The notes below the pieces were generated by a model, which worked only from the letters and a program-made list of their open reading frames with translations, was not told the DNA's origin and did no database searches. A stretch of 64,000 nucleotides of DNA, taken from NCBI GenBank assembly GCA_963731735.1, contig CAVSWO010000002.1, positions 192,875 through 256,874 on the forward strand, written 5' to 3'. The stretch's first letter is position 1. Each line of letters begins with the position of its first letter. Source of the stretch: Candidatus Kerfeldbacteria bacterium (lineage in GTDB: Bacteria; Patescibacteriota; Patescibacteriia; SBBC01; CAIJZX01). Made by a program: the position numbers and the translations under genes. This document shows, piece by piece, positions 1,620 to 47,065 of the stretch.

Positions 1620-4600
1620 TTAATTGGTACACAGTCCTGAAATATTACAGCTCGTTAACCGATAATGATAGAGCTGGTTCGCGTCCAGGTTGGAAATAGT
1701 CACGCTATGATTGGTTGTCAGAGCGTTTGGATCGCTCGGGTTGCCGTAGATTGGTGCGTTCGGATAGCTACAGGCGCCGCTGGGTGGGCAATTGACGGTT
1801 AGGCCGTAGTCAACTTGGGTGGTTGCCGCGTCATCGGTACACCAGGATATGACCGCCTGCCAGCATTGGGTGCCGCCGCAATTGGTAACGCCCGGCATGA
1901 TCGAAGTTTGGACATCCACCGCGCACGTCAGAACCGGATAACTATTATCATTGACCACGTTGACGGTGACTTCAGCCGGCGCGGAAAGGTTCCCGGCCGT
2001 GTCGCGCGCGACGGCTCGAATGACATACGCGCCATTGGTGGCCGAAAGCGTATTCCAGCTGGCTGAAAAGCTGCAGGTCGTGCCGGTACAAGTGGCCGGT
2101 TGATCAAGGGCCACTTGGCTGGGGTCGGCCTGTAAGAAAATCGTGACTTGCACGCTGCTGACCGATTTGTTATCAGTCGCTGAACCGGTGATCGCGACCT
2201 GCCCAATCACGTCTGCGCCGGAACTGGGCGCGGTTAGGCTGACCGTTGGAAGCACGGTGTCCGGTTCATCCAGGGTGGTGAATTGCAGATCAATGCCGCC
2301 GCTGTTGGTTGTGGCCGTGGTGCAATTCGGGGAACTTGCTTGGTCGCAGGAAATCACGCTGAAGAAGTAGGTGGTCAACGGTTGCAGCGGCTGGTAGACC
2401 AGATCATGACAGCCCGAGGTGCAATCGGTCGTATCATTCGATGTTCCCACGATAGCCGTTCGCGTACTATCGGTGAATATAACTATCGCTGAATCGGCCA
2501 ATTCATCCGTCATCCAGGTTATCCGAACGCTATTCCAGTTAGGATCAGCGGTGATGCCTGAAATGACCGGCCCGGTGGAGTCCGGATCAATGTGCAAAGC
2601 CAGGTTGGCGGTTTTGGTCAAGCTGCCCGCGACCCCGGACACCGTAACCGTGTAATCCCCGGCCGGAACGGCGCTGGTCGTTTGGATGTTGAGCGCGAAG
2701 GCGGTTCCGCTGCCGGTCGGGGTGACTTGGTTCGGGCTCAAGACAAGCGTGAGGTTCGGATCGGTCGGATTGCTGGCCACCGTCAGATCAACTTGACCGG
2801 AAAAACCATTCAGAGCTGTTACGGTTCCACCCACGCTTCCCGACTGACCGGCCGTAATGGTTTGGCTGGTTGGATTCAGTACCAAATTGAAGTCCGGCGG
2901 CGCACTAATGTTCAACGTGATTGGAACGGATTTGGTAATTCCATTGCCGACGCCCGTCACGGTCATCAGGTGCGATCCGGCCGGCGCAGTTGCTTGGGTA
3001 CTGATAGTGAGAGTTGAGGATTGGGTGCCGCTGGCGGATAGCGTTAGACTGGTCGGGCTAAATCCGCCGCCAACTCCGTTTGGTTGCCCGGTCAAACTCA
3101 AGGTTACGTCGCCCGCAAACGTCGAATTAGCCGTGGCTTGGATTTGGTAGGAGGTGCCCTGACCGCCGATCACGCTTTGGGCGGACGGAATCGCGTTCAA
3201 GCTGAAGTCAGGCGCCGGTTTGAGCGTTAAGACCACGGTGGCGGTGGCGGTTTTACTATTTCCAACGCCGGTGATGAGCATGGTAAATGTTCCGGTAGTG
3301 GTCGTATTGGTGGTGAGTGTTAGGGTAGAGACGGCTGAACCGTTGGCTGTCAGGTTGACCGGTGTGACACTAAAGTTTGGCACACTCCCGCCAGGATTGC
3401 CGGATAATGATAAATTGACTGATCCCGTGAAACCATTGACTGACGTCGCGGTGACGTCATAGGTAACGGTGTCCCCCGCATTTTTGGTTTGGGGTTGGCT
3501 GGGATTAGCGCTTAAGGTAAAGGTGGGTTCCGTATAAGTGAAGGTGCTTACCGCCGTGCCTTCGTTGCCGGCGCTATCGGTCGCAAATACGGTCACGGTG
3601 TTTGAACCAATCGTTAACGGTCCAAGCGTCCGATCCCAGGTCACGGCCGGAGCGCCAATAACCGGAACGGTCACGTTTTGACGCGGCGCGCCGTTGAGGG
3701 AATATTCAAGTTTTTCTATCCGGTTATCATCGCTGGCTGTTCCCTTGAACGCCGTCGGCGTGGCGTTGACGGTTGATCCATTCGCGGGTGCGGTAATGGT
3801 CACAGTCGGTGCCTGGGTATCGAGGATGATCGAAGTCGAGGCTGAGCTGTCTGATGAATTTTGTGAACCGTCGCTCGCCGTAGCCACAACGGTATTTGCA
3901 CCGGCTACAAGATTAACGGCGGCTGACCAATTCGTGCTCGTAGTACCCGGCACTCCCGGAGCCGTGACTTTCTGGGCGGTGCCGTTCGAAGTTACGCCGA
4001 TAGAATTCAACCGGATATTGTCACTCGCGCTGCCGCTGACTGTCACCGGCGTGGTTTTTGTGTAGAAGGGTGAGGCGGATGGATTGCTGATTGAAATATT
4101 CGGCGCGATGTTGTCGGGGGCGGTAGTTTGGAAGAAGCCAAACGTACCGGCGCTAACGCCTGAGCCCGAGGATTGAACGCTAAAGTGATAGGTTTGTCCG
4201 TAGGTTAGGCTTCCGGCTGGAAGAGCTAATGAATGAGAGTTGGTTAAAGTGGAATCATTCCAACCAGTCGCGCAGGTTCCGGGAGCTGGGTGACAATGGG
4301 AATACATTGCCACTTTTTGATTTGCCGAACCAACGAATATCCTTGATCCGTCAAGTAGAGTCAATGCATTAATTGATGCATTAACAAGATTATATGCTCC
4401 CCGAAAAAGTGTAGTATTTGAACCGTTATAATATCCAACATCCTGATTTGCAATAAACCAGAAAGTGTTCGGTGACAATAGCGAAAGATCTCCAACTGTC
4501 TGGGACGTTGTTGTTGTGATTGGATTAAATATTGTCCCTCCATCAGTTGATTTCAATATTGTTCCATTTGTTCCTGCAACCCAAATTGTTTGACCATCAA

Positions 4601-5687
4601 GAGTTGCAATACTTTCGAATCGCTCGGAAGTATTGTTGTCAACGGTCCAATTTGCGCCTGCATTTGTTGATCGAACGACTGTCCCATTTAGACCAACAGC
4701 CCATATTGATTTATTATCTATTGTCTTAATGTCATACAATGCGTTGCCCCCACTAAACTTCTGCTGCCAGGTTGTCCCATCAAAGAACAGAATCTTTCCA
4801 TCCTCCGTTGCGACCCAAACTGTTTGTTCGTCTGCCGCAGATATTCCAAAAATTCTACTACTATTACCAGTCGGCGCGGGAGAAATCCAATTTGCTCCTC
4901 CATTAACGGTTCGAATGACTTGACCGGAATCACCAGTCGCCCAAACCAGATTGCTATTCACAACATCCACACCGTAGAGCGCTCCTGATAATCCGCTTGT
5001 TTGACTAGACCATGTACCATTGACGTCTCGTTTTAGTATTACACCGGAGTATCCTACTGCCCATACGACTCCATTTTGATCTGAACTCATGCCAAGAAAG
5101 CCAAAGCCGGCTGGTACACTTTCTGTGCTCCAGGTCGGCCCCACAGTATTGTAATAAACTTTCGAATCCCCCGGAAATGTCGTTTGCCAGGAAATAGTCG
5201 CGCTATTGTCAGTAATGTCCGTAACTTGAAGATTCAAATCGGTAGGTGATTGATAACCTGGATAGGTGGTGGCTGTCTTTGAGGTCGTGGCGGTCGAGCC
5301 GTTCATATTTCCATAGACCTGCACTTGATAGGTGCGTCCGGAACGTAAACCGTTCCGTGTGATTGGAGCCGTACCGCTCGCACTTTGGCTGGTCCAAAAT
5401 GATGGTTGCGCGGTTGGATCCTGGCAAGTTATGGCGGTACCTAAACAATTCCACACGGTCCAGGTGTCTGCTCCGTCATTATTGCCGACACCAAAACTCA
5501 TTGAAGAGCTCGAGACCGATGCAGCTGATGTAGTTAGTGAGAGGCCGCCACAAATTCCTCCCGGTTGTGTACAAATTTCTCCCGCTGAACAAGCTGGACT
5601 ACAATTCGCGGCCAGCACCTGCTGTACCGCCACCAGCGTACAGGCGGCGATAACTAGGATAGCGACAAAGTAGGGAAGTTTGGCCAT
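1620..5687 (-). CDS. Giant secreted/cell-surface protein of about 1355 aa. It has a signal peptide (MAKLPYFVAILVIAACTLVAVQQVLAA), an N-terminal Cys-rich segment, a BNR/Ycf48-like beta-propeller region (repeated T/S-x-D/N-G-G-x-x-W motifs), multiple Ig-like/FN3-like domains and a C-terminal PAP-N/FN3-like Cys-rich end.
   Basis: Track ORF 1620..5729. I chose the second Met (MAKL...) as the start because it begins a classical signal peptide and sits 1 nt after the stop (5689-5691) of the upstream giant gene. Ser/Thr/Gly/Asn-rich extracellular composition. Confidence 0.75.
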   Translation of the reverse strand: MAKLPYFVAILVIAACTLVAVQQVLAANCSPACSAGEICTQPGGICGGLSLTTSAASVSSSSMSFGVGNNDGADTWTVWNCLGTAITCQDPTAQPSFWTSQSASGTAPITRNGLRSGRTYQVQVYGNMNGSTATTSKTATTYPGYQSPTDLNLQVTDITDNSATISWQTTFPGDSKVYYNTVGPTWSTESVPAGFGFLGMSSDQNGVVWAVGYSGVILKRDVNGTWSSQTSGLSGALYGVDVVNSNLVWATGDSGQVIRTVNGGANWISPAPTGNSSRIFGISAADEQTVWVATEDGKILFFDGTTWQQKFSGGNALYDIKTIDNKSIWAVGLNGTVVRSTNAGANWTVDNNTSERFESIATLDGQTIWVAGTNGTILKSTDGGTIFNPITTTTSQTVGDLSLLSPNTFWFIANQDVGYYNGSNTTLFRGAYNLVNASINALTLLDGSRIFVGSANQKVAMYSHCHPAPGTCATGWNDSTLTNSHSLALPAGSLTYGQTYHFSVQSSGSGVSAGTFGFFQTTAPDNIAPNISISNPSASPFYTKTTPVTVSGSASDNIRLNSIGVTSNGTAQKVTAPGVPGTTSTNWSAAVNLVAGANTVVATASDGSQNSSDSSASTSIILDTQAPTVTITAPANGSTVNATPTAFKGTASDDNRIEKLEYSLNGAPRQNVTVPVIGAPAVTWDRTLGPLTIGSNTVTVFATDSAGNEGTAVSTFTYTEPTFTLSANPSQPQTKNAGDTVTYDVTATSVNGFTGSVNLSLSGNPGGSVPNFSVTPVNLTANGSAVSTLTLTTNTTTTGTFTMLITGVGNSKTATATVVLTLKPAPDFSLNAIPSAQSVIGGQGTSYQIQATANSTFAGDVTLSLTGQPNGVGGGFSPTSLTLSASGTQSSTLTISTQATAPAGSHLMTVTGVGNGITKSVPITLNISAPPDFNLVLNPTSQTITAGQSGSVGGTVTALNGFSGQVDLTVASNPTDPNLTLVLSPNQVTPTGSGTAFALNIQTTSAVPAGDYTVTVSGVAGSLTKTANLALHIDPDSTGPVISGITADPNWNSVRITWMTDELADSAIVIFTDSTRTAIVGTSNDTTDCTSGCHDLVYQPLQPLTTYFFSVISCDQASSPNCTTATTNSGGIDLQFTTLDEPDTVLPTVSLTAPSSGADVIGQVAITGSATDNKSVSSVQVTIFLQADPSQVALDQPATCTGTTCSFSASWNTLSATNGAYVIRAVARDTAGNLSAPAEVTVNVVNDNSYPVLTCAVDVQTSIMPGVTNCGGTQCWQAVISWCTDDAATTQVDYGLTVNCPPSGACSYPNAPIYGNPSDPNALTTNHSVTISNLDANQLYHYRLTSCNISGLCTN

Positions 5688-5688
5688 A

Positions 5689-8600
5689 TTAATTCCCACG
5701 GAAATTAAGGGTCGGATTTGAAATATCATTGAACGGTCGGCAGCCCACTTCCGTATTCACCTGTCCATTACAGTCTTGTGAATTATCTTCAACCGTTTGT
5801 CGCAAATAGTCATATGACCGGCAACCCGGAAAACCATTGGCTTCCGTACCGTTACTATCAACGCACCTGCCACCGCCGCACTGGCTGCTGTTTTGGCAGT
5901 TTTGTCCCTGTACATTTGCCGGGCTGGATCCGTCGCAGACCGTAGGTTGGCAGCTGCCATCAACATACACTGGACTGCCGCCCTGCTGAATCAGCGGACA
6001 TTCGCTGCGGCAACCCGGTGGATCGGACGGATCGCGATATTCATTGCAGCCGTTCTGCGCATTTGGACAGGTTCCGGCCAGGTAAACGCAGGTGTTGCTG
6101 CCGGCACAGTTACTTTTCCCCGACGTGGAGTTGATCGAACATTGTCCATAAACGGTTTTGCCTTTTCCATCAACGATTTTTCCAATCAAGCTCGCGTCGC
6201 CCACACAGGTTGACCCGGGACAGTCGCCGTCACTGACGCAGGCTTTACCGACCCGTTGTCCGTCCTGACAAACCGGACTGCAGGAGGCACCGATGGGCTG
6301 ACCCTGGAGGGGCGGCGTGGTAATCGGACAACGCGAATTGGTGCCGGTGATGTACCAGGTGCCGCCAACATCCGAATCATCCGCCCGGAATTCACAGGTC
6401 TGTGAGCTCGGATCCTTGAAGAAGGCGGCCGTACCATTACTATCGGTATAGGCTTTACACGATAATTCATTCTGCAAACAAATATCTGTACTATACCGAT
6501 CTGGATTGTTTTTCAGGTAGACGGTTTGGAAGCCGGTCAGGGTATGATCGGTCGAATACACCGGCAAGCCGTATGCCTGGCATCCGAGTTGTGAAGACGC
6601 ACAGTAGGCAGCCTTATTGTTGACCACGGTTACGACTTGGTCGGCCGGCGTGAACTCATTCTTGACGGTCTGTGCAAATGGGCTGCTGCTATTCTGGGTG
6701 TCGATCATGGCTTCACAGCCGACCACTTGTTCGGAACAGATGCGGTTGAATGACTTCAGGTATTGACTCTGTCCGGCCCGATCGCGATAGGCAGCGCATC
6801 CAATTTCACTGGCTTGGCAAATCGGGACGGTCGGCTGGACTAAGTAGAGACTGTCGTTGATTTCGGTCAGCACCACGTTGTCGACGAAAGCCTCCCCGCC
6901 GCTGACGCTGATCCCGAGGCGGAAATCGCGACCGTTCAGAGCCACTGGGCCATAGGTATATTGCTGCCACTGCGGTCCGGCCGGGGTAATATTTTCGTTC
7001 CATCGCAGCGTGCCCGGATTTGTTGTCAGTGGCTGCGTCAAATCAAATCCCCCGTCGGCCATTCGCAGCGTCCGTTCGACTTCGCCGCCGAAGCCGGCGT
7101 TGATGGTCGCGCCGTCACTGGCCTGGTTGGCGGCGGCGGCATAGAAACTGACCACGTATGATTTACCGTCCGTCAGCTGGGTGTCCAGCACGGAAGCTTG
7201 GGTGTAGGCGGCGGCTTTTCCGGCTGCCCCAACGGGGATATACATCGAGTGACCGCCCAGGGTCGTGGACTCGGTCACGTTAACTCCCCCCACCCAATTG
7301 TTGGTTGTGCCGGATTCGAAGGTGTCGTTCAAAATTGCCCGCGCGGTCCGGCCGCTATTCCCGGTATAAGCGCGACACCCAGCCGCGGCGGCTGAACACG
7401 AGACGTTTTCATTGGCCGACAGGAAATATACATTGTCGTTATTATTCGGATCATTATCGTTCTGATCGGTGGTGTTCCGATATGGTGTACAAGCGGCCGT
7501 GACCGTGACGGTTTTTGAACGTAAGCGGTAATACACCTGCAATGCTGAATCATAAAATTCACCGCAATCCGGATTGGTCGCCAAGTCGGCCGCCGAACAA
7601 CTGGCAATGGTGGTTGACGTGTCGTTACAGGTCGGCGTCCCGCCAGCTGAATTTCCTGGTGTCACATTGGTACAGGGTCCGTTATTGAGGTTTGATTGCA
7701 ACAATTCATGCGCTTGCAACACGAATCCTTTTTGCGCGTTCCCAACCCAGCTGTAATAGGTGACTTGATTGGTGGCGGTTGGATCGGGCTTGACGCATTG
7801 TTTGACTGATTGGAAATATTCTTTGCCTTCGCCACCGCGCGCCACTTCATCCAGGTTAGTATATTCTTCGCACCCGACTTGTGAGGCGTTGCATTGCTGA
7901 CCCTTCGGCGCGACGATATTCGTGTATCCGCCGGCCCGGCTGATTGGCCCGGTGGTGTATGGTTCGAGGTAATAGGTCGCGCACCCAACGTCGTCGGCAC
8001 TACAGCGATTGCTGTTTCGAACTTGGCCGTTGACTACCGGGCCGCCGGCTAGCGGCGTATACGCTTCACACCCGACATCATCGGAACTGCAGGCAACTCG
8101 TTTCTTATTGAGGGCTAGGGTGTTAACCAGCCCGTAATCTTTATACTGTGATTGTCCGCCCTCTTCGACTTGAGCGCTGTCGATCACCAGACCCGCGCAG
8201 TTCCCCGGTTCAATAGTGAAGGTCAGGGCATTGCTGCTGGATGTCTGTTGATCTTCTCGTCCGATGACTAGCAAGGCACTGGCGGATCCCCAGTCCGTGC
8301 CAACCGTCACGTCTTGCGTCGTTGAGTCGACGTCAGTCGTTAGGGTTACCTTGGCCTGACATTCAGCGCTGGCCTTGGCTCGAACTGATCCGACAAAGTT
8401 TCGTTCGTAGAGGTGGTAGCCGGTATCGATGGTTGAAGAAATTGAGCCGGTCAGCGCCACCGCGGTCAGATTGCTGCCGTTAATCGCTTGGTCCGAGGCC
8501 GCCACCGCTTGCGCGCCATTTTGATTCCAGCCGGCGAAATCATCATCGGATCCATCATCAGCCTGACCGGTAAAGGTCTCGAACCCGCTGTTCGGAATCA

Positions 8601-11199
8601 GGTTTGTCCCGCCGGTTGTCCGAATAAATTTCCGGCAACCTTCACCGGAAGCGTTACAGCTTTCAACGTTCCCGGTAAACCGGACGATATCGTCACCCAC
8701 GGAACCCGGCACATCATCGACCTTGGGTTCGCTGCATTGCCAGGTTTGGGAATCCTGATTGTAGGCCGAGCAGTACCACTGGCATCCGGCCACCTCGGAG
8801 TTGCACTTTCGGAAATCCAAGGTTGAGGCCAGGTAAGAATTCTGTTGGCCGCTGGCGTCGGTGTAAGTGGTGCAGCTGGCATACTGCGCGTCGCAGCGGG
8901 TGCCGTCGAAGCGGAAGGTTTGCCGCTCTTGGACGCAGTAGCCGAAGGCGATACAGGTGCCATCCTCATTTTCGGCGATACAGGATTGTGTATCAGCACA
9001 GGTGTTAGCATTCCGACTGACGACCCAGCGTCCAATGTCAGGGCCAAAGGCACTATTCGTACAATTCGGCACATTGCTGCCCAGGGCGTTTGTATCGCTG
9101 GAACCCAGGACGTTATCTTGGTCGCAGACAAATTCCTTGGTTACAATTTCTTCGCCGGCGCCCTGTCGTCGGCAATAGGTCTGGGGAGCTTTTAAGACCC
9201 AGTTCGGATCCACTAAACCACAGTATGGACTCGGTGTGAGCTTGGCCTGACAACCTTCTCCGTCCGCGATTTGAGCTTGGGTCACTCCGCATTGGCTGTC
9301 GGCTGTGCAGGTTTGCCCGGCATTCGTGCTGCCAGCTGTACAAACTTTATCGTCAGGCGTGGCGGTATGCTGAGAGTCTTGGCCGCAGATATCATATTGC
9401 TTGATCAGATACCCAAGGCTCAAGTCACGCGGGTCAAATTCTTGACTGTAGAGAGCCGCCAACTCCCAACCCACCGGCGTGATGCGATATTTCCGGAGAT
9501 ATTGCAACGACCGGTACGAATAGCCGTTCCGTGGCTGTATTCCATTTTTATCAAAACCAAAAGTCTTGCGTGCGTCGAGCAAGCCTTGCTTGAGTGCTTC
9601 CTGGACCGTTAACTCACTGTCAATCGCGTTTCGAAACTGGGAATCAATTAATCCAGCGCTGGACAATTCGGATGTCACATCAACTTCATTGCGTCCCGGA
9701 TCGCCGGTTCGGATGTCGACTTGGCCGATTTGAGCGAATTGGAGTTGCGCGCCGGCGATACCGGTTGCGCCACCGGAGCCGAAGAGGAGCTGGCCCAGTG
9801 CCGATGTTGGGTTTGTTGGTCCGCTGCAAGCATTTGGATTTAACCCACATCGACTCTTGAAAAAATTCGTCAGGACACGACCGATTGGACTACTAATAAA
9901 GGCTGACAAGCCTTTGATGATATCGGCGCCCGGTTGACCGGTGAAAACCGCGTTGGCGTCCGACCCGCCGGTCAGCGCGCTCAATAAACTTTGTTGCCCC
10001 GCTTCACGCGGAACGAGCACCACGCCGCTGACCTTCGAGGTGCGCGGGAGTATTCCGCTGGACTGCTTGGTCTGTTCCGCTTGCACGGCTGCTTGTTGCT
10101 TTTCTCCGAGGTCCGAATAGGCCACCAATAATTTACCGATATCACTGTTGCCAACCGACAGGGAATTGGCGACCACTACCGAAGCTTCCGGCGCTTGTAA
10201 CTGACCAACCGCCGAAAAGAAGTCCGTGGCCGTCAGCTGGTTGACGGTCTGGTCGGCCAGGGCGGTTATCCCCTTACCACAATCGGTCGCACATTTACCG
10301 GCTTCCGACGCGCCTTTGCTGCGCTCGACGTTTATCGCTTCGTTCATGCGGGATTGGCAAAGGGAGGCCGACATCTTGCAGGTGTCGGCATTGGCCGTAT
10401 TGTCACAGGCGCCGGGTAAAATCCGCCACGGCACATACGAGCTGCCGACCGTTGGATCACCCGGAAATATATCCGAACAGGTAACTTCTTTATCGGGCGT
10501 CGTCCCGGCCACTTCATTAATCCCGGGATTGAGATCAACCCCGGCCAGATGATCGTAGATCAGCTGGACATTGCGCTCATGATCATTCAGCTCATTCGGG
10601 TTCGGCCGGGGTCCGAGGGCGGCATTGCTTTTTGAATCTGGAATCACGTCAATTACTCGATACAAGGTGCTGCAATCTTCCTGGCACTGCTGAACCGGTG
10701 AGCCAATTGCGGTTCGCAAAATACGGGAAATGACAAATCGCTGACGGGCATCACTGGTCGAGGTCCCGACTCCGTTTTCTCCGGTTACGCCTCGAGTGTA
10801 TTCATCAATAAAATCTCCGGCTGCACTGTTCAGCACATTCGGCCAATAATCTTTAAAGTTGGTGATAAACAGCGGCTGCTGCCCGGGACCGGTGGTGGCG
10901 ATGTCGGTTAACACCTCTTGCGCAATCCGAGCGTTATATACCTCGAGCGTGTTCTTGAAAGCGATGGCGGCCGCGCCTTTGGTGGCTTTGTCGATGCGCT
11001 CGGCTGCATTAGTAATAAAATCCGCAATCCGCCGCGGGATGTCGCCGATCGTGGTCGTTACCGAGACGGGGCTCTGCGCCAAGGCCGGTCGGGCATTGAA
11101 ACCGAACCATAGACCTGTTCCGACGACCAAAAACAAGGCCACCAAAACGTGCCGGCGGAGGCGAGATCGTGTTCGGCGTTGATGGGGATTCGGACTCAT
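5689..11199 (-). CDS. Giant (1836 aa) Cys-rich secreted protein. It has an N-terminal signal anchor/peptide (…LVALFLVVGTGLWFGFNARPALAQS), very many paired cysteines and at least two carbohydrate-binding-module-like (CBM4/9/22-like) beta-sandwich segments.
   Basis: Track ORF on the minus strand. Composition and motifs (N-x-x-FE-type CBM segments, hundreds of Cys/Gly/Thr/Asn) read directly from the sequence. Its start overlaps the stop of the upstream TSP3 gene by 4 nt (ATGA). Confidence 0.75.
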   Translation of the reverse strand: MSPNPHQRRTRSRLRRHVLVALFLVVGTGLWFGFNARPALAQSPVSVTTTIGDIPRRIADFITNAAERIDKATKGAAAIAFKNTLEVYNARIAQEVLTDIATTGPGQQPLFITNFKDYWPNVLNSAAGDFIDEYTRGVTGENGVGTSTSDARQRFVISRILRTAIGSPVQQCQEDCSTLYRVIDVIPDSKSNAALGPRPNPNELNDHERNVQLIYDHLAGVDLNPGINEVAGTTPDKEVTCSDIFPGDPTVGSSYVPWRILPGACDNTANADTCKMSASLCQSRMNEAINVERSKGASEAGKCATDCGKGITALADQTVNQLTATDFFSAVGQLQAPEASVVVANSLSVGNSDIGKLLVAYSDLGEKQQAAVQAEQTKQSSGILPRTSKVSGVVLVPREAGQQSLLSALTGGSDANAVFTGQPGADIIKGLSAFISSPIGRVLTNFFKSRCGLNPNACSGPTNPTSALGQLLFGSGGATGIAGAQLQFAQIGQVDIRTGDPGRNEVDVTSELSSAGLIDSQFRNAIDSELTVQEALKQGLLDARKTFGFDKNGIQPRNGYSYRSLQYLRKYRITPVGWELAALYSQEFDPRDLSLGYLIKQYDICGQDSQHTATPDDKVCTAGSTNAGQTCTADSQCGVTQAQIADGEGCQAKLTPSPYCGLVDPNWVLKAPQTYCRRQGAGEEIVTKEFVCDQDNVLGSSDTNALGSNVPNCTNSAFGPDIGRWVVSRNANTCADTQSCIAENEDGTCIAFGYCVQERQTFRFDGTRCDAQYASCTTYTDASGQQNSYLASTLDFRKCNSEVAGCQWYCSAYNQDSQTWQCSEPKVDDVPGSVGDDIVRFTGNVESCNASGEGCRKFIRTTGGTNLIPNSGFETFTGQADDGSDDDFAGWNQNGAQAVAASDQAINGSNLTAVALTGSISSTIDTGYHLYERNFVGSVRAKASAECQAKVTLTTDVDSTTQDVTVGTDWGSASALLVIGREDQQTSSSNALTFTIEPGNCAGLVIDSAQVEEGGQSQYKDYGLVNTLALNKKRVACSSDDVGCEAYTPLAGGPVVNGQVRNSNRCSADDVGCATYYLEPYTTGPISRAGGYTNIVAPKGQQCNASQVGCEEYTNLDEVARGGEGKEYFQSVKQCVKPDPTATNQVTYYSWVGNAQKGFVLQAHELLQSNLNNGPCTNVTPGNSAGGTPTCNDTSTTIASCSAADLATNPDCGEFYDSALQVYYRLRSKTVTVTAACTPYRNTTDQNDNDPNNNDNVYFLSANENVSCSAAAAGCRAYTGNSGRTARAILNDTFESGTTNNWVGGVNVTESTTLGGHSMYIPVGAAGKAAAYTQASVLDTQLTDGKSYVVSFYAAAANQASDGATINAGFGGEVERTLRMADGGFDLTQPLTTNPGTLRWNENITPAGPQWQQYTYGPVALNGRDFRLGISVSGGEAFVDNVVLTEINDSLYLVQPTVPICQASEIGCAAYRDRAGQSQYLKSFNRICSEQVVGCEAMIDTQNSSSPFAQTVKNEFTPADQVVTVVNNKAAYCASSQLGCQAYGLPVYSTDHTLTGFQTVYLKNNPDRYSTDICLQNELSCKAYTDSNGTAAFFKDPSSQTCEFRADDSDVGGTWYITGTNSRCPITTPPLQGQPIGASCSPVCQDGQRVGKACVSDGDCPGSTCVGDASLIGKIVDGKGKTVYGQCSINSTSGKSNCAGSNTCVYLAGTCPNAQNGCNEYRDPSDPPGCRSECPLIQQGGSPVYVDGSCQPTVCDGSSPANVQGQNCQNSSQCGGGRCVDSNGTEANGFPGCRSYDYLRQTVEDNSQDCNGQVNTEVGCRPFNDISNPTLNFRGN

Positions 11200-28468: not shown

Positions 28469-29413
28469 ATGCCGGAAACCAAAACCAATGAACTGACCCG
28501 CTGGAAGAATCGTTTTTTAAGTTACATTGAGGTTGAGCGCAACAAAAGCCTGTTAACCCGACGGAATTACGATCACTACCTGACCACCTTTATCACGGTT
28601 ACGCGCCTGACCCGCCCCGAACAAATTTCCCTGGATGACATCCGGGATTTCCGCCTTTGGCTCAATCGCCAAATTAGCGCCCGCGGTAACAGCCTGAAAA
28701 AATCTACCCAGAACTACTATTTGATCGCCTTGCGATCGTTCTTAAAGTATTTGGCCAAGCAGGATGTCAAAGCTATGGCCGCCGAGAAGATCGAACTCGC
28801 GAAAACCAGCGACCGGCAAGTCAGTTTTTTAGAGGGGGATGATCTCGAGCGATTTTTGAACGCCCCAATGCAGCCGCACGCGCAAAGCTTAGTGGCCATC
28901 CGCGATAAAGCGATTCTGGAGTTACTGTTCTCTTCCGGCCTTCGAGTTTCCGAATTAGCGAATCTCAAACAGGACAACCTTAATTTAAAAAAAGACGAAT
29001 TCACCATCCGCGGCAAAGGCGATAAACTCCGGGTGGTGTTCTTATCGTCAGCAGCCAAAAAATGGATCGCCCTATATCTGCAAAAACGGCATGATGGATC
29101 CCCGTATCTATTCGTCCGTCATGATCGGGCCGGTAAACGCACCAGCGAATCAAAGCCGCTCACGCCACGTTCAATCCAACGTCTGGTTGATCACTACACC
29201 AAAGCGGCTGGAATTACAAAAAAGGTTACTCCCCATACGTTGCGACACTCCTTCGCAACTGATCTCCTGATGAACGGAGCTGACATTCGAAGCGTTCAGG
29301 CCATGCTCGGGCACGCCTCGATCCAAACCACCCAGATCTACACCCACGTAACCAATCCACAACTCCGTGAGATTTACAAAAAGCATCACGGTAAGGGTCG
29401 GGCAGAAAACTAA
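28469..29413 (+). CDS. XerC/XerD-family tyrosine site-specific recombinase
   Basis: N-terminal SAM-like domain and C-terminal catalytic domain with R...HxxR...Y (HTLRHSFATDLLMNGADIRSVQAMLGHASIQTTQIYTHV). Confidence 0.85.
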   Translation: MPETKTNELTRWKNRFLSYIEVERNKSLLTRRNYDHYLTTFITVTRLTRPEQISLDDIRDFRLWLNRQISARGNSLKKSTQNYYLIALRSFLKYLAKQDVKAMAAEKIELAKTSDRQVSFLEGDDLERFLNAPMQPHAQSLVAIRDKAILELLFSSGLRVSELANLKQDNLNLKKDEFTIRGKGDKLRVVFLSSAAKKWIALYLQKRHDGSPYLFVRHDRAGKRTSESKPLTPRSIQRLVDHYTKAAGITKKVTPHTLRHSFATDLLMNGADIRSVQAMLGHASIQTTQIYTHVTNPQLREIYKKHHGKGRAEN

Positions 29414-39512: not shown

Positions 39513-39959
39513 TCAACTATGAAACCAATCGGGTTCGGGAAAGCGCAATTCCCATTGTTCCCAGGGCTGAACATTCATATCAATGTAGCGCAGCCAGGTT
39601 GGAGTAATTCGGAAGAAAATACTGCCCTCAACGAGTTGGTCGGTCATGCTCGGATGTTTCTTCGCAAACAAGGCTTTGGCTTGGTTGACTTCCTCGCCAC
39701 CCAGGGGTTCGGCATAACCGTGATACTGAACCGCGCGCAAATCTTTGGTCATGGCCAGGGCGACTTTGGGGTTCTCCACGAGATTCTCGTATTTTTTGGT
39801 CGGATGTGTCCCGAATAGCAAAGTTAAATTATCGACTTCGGCAAACAAAATCACCGCCGCCGCGGGATTGCCTTTCTTATCAGCGGTGGCAATCACTGCG
39901 GTCGGGTGTTCCGACAGGAAGGTCAGGAGGAGTTGGCGACGTTGGCTGGCTTGATCCAT
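39513..39959 (-). CDS. Pyridoxamine 5'-phosphate oxidase-like FMN-binding split-barrel protein
   Basis: Track ORF 39513..40280 trimmed to the Met (MDQASQRRQLL...) because the upstream part runs across tRNA-Arg and its repeat. PNPOx-like motifs (VIATADKKGNPAAAVILFAEVD, FGTHPTKKYENL). Confidence 0.65.
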   Translation of the reverse strand: MDQASQRRQLLLTFLSEHPTAVIATADKKGNPAAAVILFAEVDNLTLLFGTHPTKKYENLVENPKVALAMTKDLRAVQYHGYAEPLGGEEVNQAKALFAKKHPSMTDQLVEGSIFFRITPTWLRYIDMNVQPWEQWELRFPEPDWFHS

Positions 39960-39988
39960 ATTTCGTAGTCTAGCAAAAATGCCGCCAG

Positions 39989-40017
39989 TTGTCAGATACG
40001 ACCAAATGTGGTAGGTT
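39989..40017 (+). promoter_or_regulatory. Promoter for tRNA-Arg(TCG): TTGTCA-17 bp-TAGGTT
   Basis: Read directly. The -10 box ends about 11 nt before the tRNA 5' end. Confidence 0.4.
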
Positions 40018-40028
40018 CTAGCCTGCTT

Positions 40029-40105
40029 GCGCCCGTAGCTCAGTGGATTAGAGCATTTGGCTTCGGACCAAAGGGTCGGGGGTTCGAGTCCCTCCGGGCG
40101 CACCA
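40029..40105 (+). tRNA. tRNA-Arg (anticodon TCG), CCA encoded
   Basis: Hand-folded: acceptor GCGCCCG/CGGGCGC, D stem GCTC/GAGC, anticodon stem TTTGG/CCAAA with loop CTTCGGA, T arm GGGGG-TTCGAGT-CCCTC. Confidence 0.8.
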
Positions 40106-40236
40106 AATAGGTCGCGAAGCGAATCATAAACATTACCCGAAGAGGGACGAGAAGGGTTGCAGCGCACGAGTCGAGCCGTGCTCGACGAAGCTCGCGATCG
40201 ACGAGTTGCCAGCGGCAAGTCGTCGCAACCCAGGAC

Positions 40237-40258
40237 TCGAGTCCCTCCGGGCGCACCA
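40237..40258 (+). repeat. Exact 22-nt direct repeat (tcgagtccctccgggcgcacca) of the tRNA-Arg(TCG) 3' end (40084-40105), 131 bp downstream
   Basis: Both copies read directly. The intervening 131 bp is GC-rich with nested hairpins (GGGTTGC...GCAACCC, TCGAGC-cgt-GCTCGA). Confidence 0.85.
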
Positions 40259-40291
40259 CTGAACTTTGTTTCACCGACAATTTAATTCACT

Positions 40292-40890: not shown

Positions 40891-40906
40891 AATACGTTTA
40901 TAACGC

Positions 40907-40932
40907 GCCACGCCTGCTCTGCAGCAGGCGTG
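40907..40932 (-). terminator. Perfect 11-bp hairpin (CCACGCCTGCT-ctgc-AGCAGGCGTGG) downstream of the minus-strand DUF378 gene. Weak U-tract.
   Basis: Inverted repeat read directly. Confidence 0.35.
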
Positions 40933-40959
40933 GATGTCATTCGAAAAAACTGATCGCGA

Positions 40960-46409: not shown

Positions 46410-46763
46410 ATGCCCCGCGGACAGAATCTCTACTTTCGCATCTACGGTGCGGTGCGCCGTATCCCGAAAGGCAAGGTTGCAACCTATGGACAAATTGCTG
46501 CTATGATTCAAGCTCCCCGCTCAGCTAGAATTGTCGGCTGGGCTTTACGCGCGCTCAAACCCGAGAGCCGCATACCATGGCATCGCGTCCTCAATAAGGA
46601 CGGGATGATCTCGATTGAAAATATGCGCACACCGAAGTCTCTCCAGGCAGAACTCTTGAAGCAGGAAGGTGTAACTGTCGACTTTCGAGATGGGAATTTT
46701 TGGGTGGACTTGAAAAAGTTTGGCTTGGGCGGTAGAGTAGAGCCGCCTGCGGGTATCGTATAA
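46410..46763 (+). CDS. Alkyltransferase-like protein (MGMT DNA-binding domain with Trp replacing the active-site Cys: PWHRV; YbaZ/Atl-like)
   Basis: YGQIA...PRSARIVGWAL...IPWHRVLN. The 3' end of the ORF runs about 15 nt into the tRNA-Gly(TCC) gene. Confidence 0.6.
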   Translation: MPRGQNLYFRIYGAVRRIPKGKVATYGQIAAMIQAPRSARIVGWALRALKPESRIPWHRVLNKDGMISIENMRTPKSLQAELLKQEGVTVDFRDGNFWVDLKKFGLGGRVEPPAGIV

Positions 46764-46822
46764 TGGTAATACCTCAGCTTTCCAAGCTGATGCCGGGGGT
46801 TCGATTCCCCCTACCCGCTCCA
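46749..46822 (+). tRNA. tRNA-Gly (anticodon TCC), CCA encoded
   Basis: Hand-folded; near-identical architecture to E. coli glyT (GCGGGTATCGTATAATGG...CCTCAGCTTTCCAAGCTGA...). Anticodon loop TTTCCAA. Confidence 0.8.
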
Positions 46823-46958
46823 AATAGCTTTATAAGTCTTCCAAGCAAGGAAGACAACATTGTCATTGACGTCGAGGAATCGAACGGGCCGAGGACGGCT
46901 GCCGGCGGCAGGCGACCACCGGCCCAGGCCCGAACCGCCGTGGAGTAACGGTGAGCGG

Positions 46959-46980
46959 TCGATTCCCCCTACCCGCTCCA
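46959..46980 (+). repeat. Exact 22-nt direct repeat (tcgattccccctacccgctcca) of the tRNA-Gly(TCC) 3' end (46801-46822), 136 bp downstream
   Basis: Both copies read directly. The intervening sequence is GC-rich with palindromic segments (ctgccggcggcag). Confidence 0.85.
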
Positions 46981-47065
46981 ACCCAAGGTATGCCGGTGTA
47001 GCTGGCTGGTTTTTCGATACCGGAAGCGTTATACTTCTGGTATCATCAAGTAACAGTGCGGCCCC

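Follow-up and report, generated by a model that had tools for sequence, protein, structure and literature searches.

Introduction

The T-loop, as a sublocation of integration into tRNA and tmRNA genes, was reportedly set apart in a classification by Williams in 2002. CIMEs, which also concern us here, derive by deletion from a known parent ICE and still bear genes. Insertion at the T-loop with 20-bp repeats of the 3′-end, tandem islands and islands without an integrase have all been documented, and the ssrA islands of Dehalococcoides are associated with the serine recombinase DsiB (PMC3146451). The integrating element carries the part of the gene that extends from the crossover to the 3′-end (Islander, PMC4383910). 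A different design of attachment site is known from CTXphi, in which two inverted dif-like sites approx. 90 nt apart pair in the single-stranded genome to form a 150-nt forked hairpin. This hairpin is the actual att site, and after integration a single functional dif remains together with two copies that are non-functional (PMC3089051).

Here we analyze a duplicated tRNA-Arg(TCG) 3′-end in a Kerfeldbacteria-like CPR bacterium. The window (the whole stretch of DNA that was analyzed, 64,000 nt) contains eight tRNA genes. The tRNA-Arg duplication looks like one copy of a recurring non-coding module of approx. 150 bases, located behind tRNA and tmRNA genes of very different bacteria.

Results

The duplicated 3′-end of tRNA-Arg(TCG)

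The initial annotation of this DNA reported an exact 22-nt duplication of the tRNA-Arg(TCG) 3′-end, 131 nt downstream of the gene. We confirmed that the sequence TCGAGTCCCTCCGGGCGCACCA occurs exactly twice in the window (40084-40105 and 40237-40258), both times on the plus strand; shuffled sequences gave 0.00 expected matches to this 22-mer, even with 3 mismatches allowed. The features of the locus, referred to as element E1, are as follows.

40029-40105, plus strand: intact tRNA-Arg(TCG) (ARAGORN; Rfam RF00005, 71 bits), T-arm GGGGG-TTCGAGT-CCCTC
40084-40105, plus strand: direct repeat copy 1, an exact 22-mer equal to nt 55-76 of the tRNA (from T55 in the T-loop to CCA)
40106-40124, plus strand: left end of the E1 body, AATAG followed by the small hairpin TCGC-GAA-GCGA (from the sequence)
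40136-40151, plus strand: IR-L, CCCG-AA-GAGGGAC-GAG, which copies tRNA nt ~57-69 in inverted, degenerate form (MFE folds as RNA and DNA)
40154-40231, plus strand: GC-rich core, outer stem GGGTTGC/GCAACCC around two hairpins (folds)
40170-40186, plus strand: core hairpin 1, GTCGAGC-CGT-GCTCGAC (folds)
40199-40225, plus strand: core hairpin 2, CGACGAGTTGCC-AGC-GGCAAGTCGTCG (folds)
40237-40258, plus strand: direct repeat copy 2, an exact 22-mer, the displaced tRNA-Arg 3′-end

In the MFE folds, of RNA and DNA alike, the partner of IR-L is repeat copy 2 (CTC-GA-GTCCCTC-CGGG). Position 54 of this copy is C, not T, which generates a 12-nt palindrome, GGACTCGAGTCC, at 40233-40244. The tips of the body read AATAGGTCG... 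on the left and ...CCCAGGAC on the right, and the flank that would directly follow the CCA of tRNA-Arg at an empty site is CTGAACTTTG.

The spacer (40106-40236, 131 nt) had been described as GC-rich and folded. Its folding is pronounced (-50.5 kcal/mol, z = -3.7, with none of 200 shuffles as stable), and it is only moderately GC-rich (58.8% vs 53.0% for the window). The left-end hairpin is not followed by a U-tract, and no intrinsic terminator was predicted between positions 39900 and 40400; E1 therefore does not have the form of a trailer composed of a GC-rich hairpin and a U-tract.

An ORF of 255 aa on the minus strand (39513-40280), which reads the heptapeptide VRPEGLE twice, had been regarded as spurious, and rightly so. 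It is an artefact that arises from over-extending a PNPOx-family gene. The gene itself begins at 39962, and its product matches Pfam on residues 13-127 of the 149-aa form. E1 is placed between housekeeping genes, with PNPOx on its left and a gene for a VKOR-like membrane protein starting 34 nt past copy 2.

A second element at tRNA-Gly(TCC)

The 3′-ends of all eight tRNAs of the window were checked for second copies. The tRNA-Gly(TCC) gene, 6.7 kb away, proved to be arranged like tRNA-Arg; this arrangement (46749-46980, element E2) had been missed by the initial annotation.

46749-46822, plus strand: intact tRNA-Gly(TCC), host of E2 (ARAGORN; Rfam 66 bits), T-arm GGGGG-TTCGATT-CCCCC
46801-46822, plus strand: repeat copy 1, the last 22 nt of tRNA-Gly (exact repeat)
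46823-46958, plus strand: E2 body of 136 nt, beginning with AATAG (sequence and folds)
46836-46855, plus strand: left hairpin (folds)
46874-46883, plus strand: IR-L, GAGGAATCGA (folds)
46886-46925, plus strand: hairpin H1, apex CTGCC-GGC-GGCAG (folds)
46935-46958, plus strand: hairpin H2 (folds)
46959-46980, plus strand: direct repeat of tRNA-Gly nt 55-76, TCGATTCCCCCTACCCGCTCCA, an exact 22-mer in the same T55-to-CCA register as in E1
46992-47014, plus strand: terminator-like hairpin and T-run past the displaced copy (terminator prediction)

As in E1, the base preceding the second copy is not T. The terminator-like hairpin past the displaced tRNA-Gly copy is what would be expected if insertion of the module had separated the tRNA body from its native terminator. 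Beyond AATAG and the hairpin apex TGCC-RGY-GGCA the two elements have little primary sequence in common, which means that neither is a recent copy of the other. Neither body (131 nt and 136 nt) contains an ORF. In E2, the hexamer GAGCGG that directly precedes the repeat is the complement of CCGCTC, with which the repeat ends.

The T-arm motif GGGGG-TTCGAKT-CCCYC is present in two tRNAs of the window, both of which bear an element, vs none of the six tRNAs without the motif. The tmRNA described below has the same T-arm as these two tRNAs, and a putative target bias (or rule) of the elements for the T-arm GGGGGTTCGAKTCCCYC is counted in favour of the family.

The trailer of tRNA-Pro(TGG), at 40891-40933 of the window, opens with AATAC, which resembles the AATAG seen in the elements, and contains no copy of the tRNA 3′-end. 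It does contain GCGCCACGCC, 10 nt that are the reverse complement of tRNA-Pro nt 4-13 (chance approx. 0.03, a rough estimate) and that provide the 5′ arm for an 11-bp hairpin, CCACGCCTGCT-CTGC-AGCAGGCGTGG.

Members of the family outside the window

A generic pattern, which picks up both E1 and E2, was used to scan 241 million metagenome records. It asked for no more than a T-loop block, CCA and AATAG and, after a gap of 105-135 nt, any base except T, another T-loop block and another CCA. The two matches obtained, contigs L022 and L023, are both true members: they show IR-L, two hairpins, and repeats identical at all bases left free by the pattern. In L022 (element E3), two 149-bp units stand in tandem behind a tmRNA 3′-end (Rfam, 95.5 bits); these units are 94% identical and 6% different. 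L023 (element E4) contains tRNA-Leu(TAG), a 131-nt body and a 22-nt repeat. Judging from the flanking proteins, the hosts of both are Lachnospiraceae-like Firmicutes.

The tmRNA array of L022 comprises 2.06 units, stopping 9-10 nt into the third. Its last repeat is cut to TCGATTCCC (L022, 552-560) or TCGATTCCCC (L044, 52-61) and is joined to TGGCTGATTC...; next come a small hairpin (AAAACAG-TTG-CTGTTTT) and, beyond it, kinase, NUDIX and MerR genes. Since contig L044, from a second sample, has the same right-hand junction, the array is not an assembly artefact. At approx. 380-424 of L022, the heptamer GAGGTGG directly ahead of H2 is the complement of CCACCTC, the acceptor 3′ strand within the repeat; together with the IR-L pairing this may give a pseudoknot.

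The truncated last repeat is not predicted by a simple integrase model and is counted against the insertion reading that we favour below. It is what might be expected if full-length islands of one family had carried, close to the end next to the tRNA, an internal target-like site paired with IR-L, and if recombination of this site with attR had removed the cargo and the integrase, leaving the left-end module and a full repeat as a dead end that is not mobile. Such a collapse would explain the constant size of the bodies and the absence of a recombinase, and the module of L022/L044 that ends in TCGATTCCC(C) and runs directly into genes would be the uncollapsed left end. However, the right-hand genes of L044 (a kinase, a NUDIX protein, a MerR-type regulator and a GH36 fragment) look chromosomal, with no integrase seen among them, and neither a full-length relative nor a parent element of the CIME type was found in viral contigs, phages or plasmids. 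We consider this origin unlikely.

The array of 2.06 units, stopping 9-10 nt into the third, would also suit a small circular or concatemeric RNA or ssDNA with a site complementary to the tRNA 3′-end, copied by reverse transcription or a rolling-circle process from a CCA-OH primer, the resulting chimera then recombining into the gene. The body begins exactly past the CCA, and its far end is formed by the 22 terminal nt of the tRNA, so that the 22-mer of the minus strand would be the primer-binding site. This route leaves IR-L unexplained, however, and neither a reverse transcriptase nor an HUH gene was found in the window. We know of no precedent in bacteria for tRNA-primed copying followed by recombination into a gene, and we regard such an origin as extremely improbable.

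Members of this kind are few (four or five loci) and scattered. None of 126 other tRNA and tmRNA genes in the sequence gathered had a nearby downstream copy of its own 3′-end, no orphan foldback modules beyond the known members were detected in all 450 kb gathered, and other Lachnospiraceae tRNA-Leu loci lack the element, which reveals a sporadic distribution. Searches of viral contigs with the 22-mer retrieved only phage tRNAs or unrelated prophage ends; four generic architecture patterns matched only phage tRNA arrays or AT-rich/GC-rich chance sequences there, and a fifth gave no match; none of these six scans yielded a true member. BLAST comparisons of E1, E3 and E4 with phages, and of E3 and E4 with plasmids, gave no match. 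Rfam, to which the initial annotation had pointed for the 131-bp spacer, returned no match in any spacer (E <= 10 for E1 and E2; E <= 1 for L022 and L023), and we found no description of such a module in the literature.

We also used the kinase gene to look for an empty site around L022; of the contigs retrieved, the closest (L044) breaks off within the array, and remoter homologues are placed in other contexts. Because no empty site, excised circle or larger recombinase-bearing relative was found, the mobility of the elements is something that we infer.

A large serine recombinase beside E4

The ORF just past the displaced tRNA-Leu copy in L023 (2777-4537) encodes a large serine recombinase of 569 aa with a DUF4368 domain, and adjoins sigma-70 r4 and HTH_16 genes. 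The element to which it belongs is very abundant in gut Clostridia. Its insertion point, ...GCACCA followed by TGGCGAGTG, lies at the very 3′-end of several distinct tRNA-Leu genes, and in many contigs (the set of L028-L043, L057 and L058) its end reads TGGCGAGTG..., a terminator and the recombinase gene.

A link between this recombinase and E4 was considered and rejected, since many further contigs have the same element directly beside unremarkable tRNA-Leu ends (...GCACCA followed by TGGCGAG) that lack a module of the E1-E4 type; its own terminator serves as the tRNA terminator. Its sequence context indicates that it is a separate element, which landed on the displaced copy in L023. A displaced copy can thus act as an attachment site, because the serine-recombinase element sits exactly at its CCA.

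In L057, at approx. 2430-2460 (minus strand of the locus), we identified a 23-nt tRNA-Leu fragment, TTCGAGTCCTGTACCGCGCACCA, with the serine-recombinase element directly on its right. Only AT-rich sequence lies to its left, with no tRNA and no foldback of the E1-E4 type, and the fragment has the appearance of an attR belonging to a conventional T-loop island, arranged in tandem. This conventional displaced fragment indicates that pieces extending from the T-loop to CCA are ordinary integration products in these communities. In L028, at approx. 5760-5850 (minus strand of the locus), the end of the serine-recombinase element abuts an apparent tRNA-Leu 3′ half, from an anticodon-loop-like region to CCA; it was not called by ARAGORN and may be another displaced fragment.

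Common anatomy of the elements

E1-E4 share one layout: an intact tRNA or tmRNA, CCA, AATAG (imposed by the search pattern in E3 and E4) with a hairpin, IR-L, two GC-rich hairpins, and a direct repeat ending at a second CCA, past which an unrelated flank resumes. The repeats comprise 22 nt, from T55 to CCA, and all complete ones are identical at 22/22 positions. The spacer measures 127-136 nt at four independent tRNA or tmRNA genes in three organisms.

IR-L is an inverted copy of the cognate T-loop and of the 3′ strand of the T-stem, and so tracks the host gene: (i) in E2 (Gly), GGAATCGA pairs with TCGATTCC, (ii) in E3 (tmRNA), GGGAATCGA pairs with TCGATTCCC, and (iii) in E4 (Leu), TGGTG-T-ACAGGACTCGA pairs with TCGAGTCCTGT...CACCA. 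The pairing between IR-L and the repeat begins at T55 in E2-E4 and at approx. nt 57 in E1. IR-L is found at spacer position 49-54 in E2-E4, its end 67-72 nt ahead of the repeat; E1, with a distance of 85 nt and weak pairing, is the most deviant member. All four elements thus contain an inverted target-like pair that forms a hairpin, with approx. 67-85 nt between its halves. This interval encloses the two GC-rich hairpins, one of which in most cases combines a 3-nt loop with the apex TGCC-RGY-GGCA.

The observed complementarity was equalled by 908, 323, 97 and 0 of 5000 shuffles for E1, E2, E3 and E4, respectively. The best exact complement to the repeat in E1 is 7 nt long, which alone is not significant (908/5000 shuffles); the complementarity is significant for E1-E4 as a set, though not for E1 alone. 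The foldbacks gave z-scores of -2.2 to -7.1 with DNA parameters. Between the tandem tmRNA units, a G-C pair has flipped to C-G, a compensatory change by which the H2 pairing is kept.

These data bear directly on the earlier interpretation of the tRNA-Arg locus as an att-like scar, the remnant of an excised or decayed element. The att-like nature of the repeat is a reasonable proposal, considering its T55-to-CCA register. An integrase-bearing island or prophage might have entered tRNA-Arg and lost all but 131 bp by ordinary deletion, given that this register is typical of T-loop integration (PMC3146451, PMC4383910) and that conventional displaced fragments, such as that of L057 with no tRNA and no E1-E4-type structure on its left, occur in the same communities. 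Random decay, however, would not yield a recurring body with the same internal geometry: bodies of 127-136 nt with an inverted target copy in the same place and two GC-rich hairpins would have had to arise four times independently. Nor would it produce a compensatory change between tandem copies, or complete repeats that are all 22/22 identical. A remnant left by chance deletion is therefore a very unlikely explanation, and the other suggestion of the initial annotation, an unusual miniature element, fits the recurrence of a fixed body and geometry at four tRNA and tmRNA genes better.

The same annotation had named a conserved structured element as part of what would speak against insertion, and a conserved structure is indeed present at all four loci. 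It could be maintained by the host as a tRNA trailer acting in termination or processing, as an RNA mimic or pairing partner of the tRNA 3′ half, or as a spare attB that diverts integrating elements. The conserved fold with its compensatory change would agree with this, as would the use of the displaced copy in L023 by the large-serine-recombinase element at its CCA and the left ends of E3 and E4, which are perfect bidirectional terminators (AATAGAAAAG...CTTTTCTATT).

However, these terminators cover only the first ~36 nt, and their position between the tRNA and the foldback would block co-transcription of the latter. No promoter was predicted inside any of the elements and, as stated above, Rfam recognizes none of them. 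The plus and minus strands fold about equally well, which suggests DNA palindromes at least as readily as a single RNA strand. The structure is also rare and sporadic, with 2 pattern matches in 241 million records and no counterpart at other tRNA-Leu genes of related bacteria. Selection by the host is, in our opinion, improbable, if still worth serious consideration.

Recombinases and neighbourhood

The initial annotation had advised looking for integrases, and one candidate is present in the window.

28469-29413, plus strand: Xer-type tyrosine recombinase, given as context (Pfam Phage_integrase and a SAM-like N-terminal domain; NCBIfam XerA_Arch, 231.9 bits vs a cutoff of 220)

This gene scores below the XerC and XerD cutoffs and above that of the archaeal XerA/integron-integrase model. 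It is the only recombinase among the 47 window ORFs scanned with Pfam and lies 10.6 kb away, outside the repeats; there is no recombinase, transposase or reverse transcriptase gene within 10 kb of E1 or E2. It is located approx. 1 kb from tRNA-Arg(TCT), which has no element. The Pfam scans of the 47 ORFs revealed no transposase and no reverse transcriptase.

E1 and E2 are flanked by PNPOx, VKOR, MGMT-like and SDR genes. A synteny search with the flanking VKOR gene retrieved one genome (Kerfeldbacteria, 61% identity) and metagenome homologues, all with other neighbours and no tRNA-Arg. The closest relatives in collections share <=66% identity in a flanking protein, with no synteny, and exact-protein look-ups of the window genes gave no match. 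Elsewhere in the window (1620-11199, minus strand) we noted two very large adjacent ORFs of 1369 aa and 1836 aa.

Discussion

The spacer and second 22-mer may well represent a family of miniature non-coding site-specific insertion elements, with a functional foldback and with the stretch from the T-loop to the 3′-end of tRNA and tmRNA genes as their target; our confidence and our doubt in this reading are evenly balanced. Several signs of insertion are counted in its favour: the terminator-like hairpin past the displaced tRNA-Gly copy, the tandem tmRNA units, and the sporadic distribution across CPR bacteria and Firmicutes. Two further origins were rejected, (i) a tandem-inversion duplication, given that the hairpin core is not tRNA-derived and the flanks after the two copies differ, and (ii) CRISPR homing spacers, on anatomy.

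An element of this family would enter by site-specific recombination, with the crossover at or just after T54/T55. It would supply a replacement 3′-end (repeat copy 1 in E1, 40084-40105) and, in Firmicutes, also a terminator, so that the tRNA would stay functional, and the native 3′-end would be pushed downstream. The foldback between IR-L and the repeat would be the att site of the element, the folded single strand reconstituting a duplex copy of the target, and a recombinase would act in trans. A double-stranded circle of 150 bp is a poor recombination substrate, and for this reason a single-strand or other route has to be assumed. Our confidence in the single-strand or Xer details of this mechanism is much lower than in the existence of an inserted element family.

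A bolder version can be formulated, which we offer as a speculation that is unlikely to hold in full. The elements might constitute an att-only class of approx. 150 nt, consisting of a replacement tRNA 3′-end, a terminator and a foldback att, that integrates as a folded single strand into the T-loop by means of a host recombinase (e.g. the single Xer of CPR bacteria). They would be the tRNA-targeted counterpart of Xer-exploiting elements and the smallest site-specific integrative elements known, ranging from CPR bacteria to gut Firmicutes, and as a side effect would leave spare attachment sites used by others, as in L023.

If the family is real, site-specific integration into tRNA genes is not confined to gene-bearing islands and prophages, and a non-coding module of approx. 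150 nt with a conserved foldback can occupy the same target in bacteria as distant as CPR and Lachnospiraceae. It would define a minimal att architecture and offer a route to a recombinase that recognizes T-arm DNA. It would also account for some of the pseudo-tRNA fragments and spurious ORFs that annotations contain, the 255-aa ORF described above among them, and displaced 3′-end copies could be extra landing sites for other mobile elements. Resting as it does on the sequence of four or five loci, this is a well-defined lead and not an established class.

Comparison with known systems

The elements resemble MITEs and the palindrome-associated elements derived from IS200/IS605 in being small, non-coding, hairpin-rich and non-autonomous. 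They are nevertheless not MITEs: the tips AATAGGTCG... and ...CCCAGGAC are not inverted repeats, the duplication consists of 22 nt of a specific tRNA gene rather than of a short, generic target, and no cognate transposase was seen.

With CIMEs they share att sites at both ends, the lack of recombination and transfer genes, and the presumed reliance on the integrase of a related element for movement. In contrast to CIMEs, they have no known parent, and their size and structure are conserved across phyla.

Genomic islands of tRNA and tmRNA genes provide a closer parallel: an intact gene and a displaced 3′ fragment form direct repeats (as found in E1 and E2), the 3′-end is replaced, tandem arrays occur, and some islands lack an integration module. 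Such islands, however, are gene-bearing and kilobases long, whereas the elements described here are non-coding, measure 127-136 nt, contain no integrase gene and have a conserved foldback.

In CTXphi attP(+) and integron attC (PMC3089051, PMC4792948), as in our elements, inverted target-like sequences tens of nucleotides apart can pair into a hairpin that restores a duplex copy of the target, and integration leaves a single functional target beside target-like copies that do not function. In our elements, by contrast, the target is a tRNA T-arm, not dif or attI, and there are no phage or cassette genes. An identity with attC was rejected, since no ORF is present and the R''/R' consensus (RYYYAAC/GTTRRRY) was not found: IR-L reads ..ATCGAAC or ..CTCGAAC, and the right junction is V followed by TCGA, without GTT. 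The closest analogue in design is CTXphi. The T-loop register of the repeats is already known; what is new is a size of 127-136 nt without genes, together with the conserved foldback.
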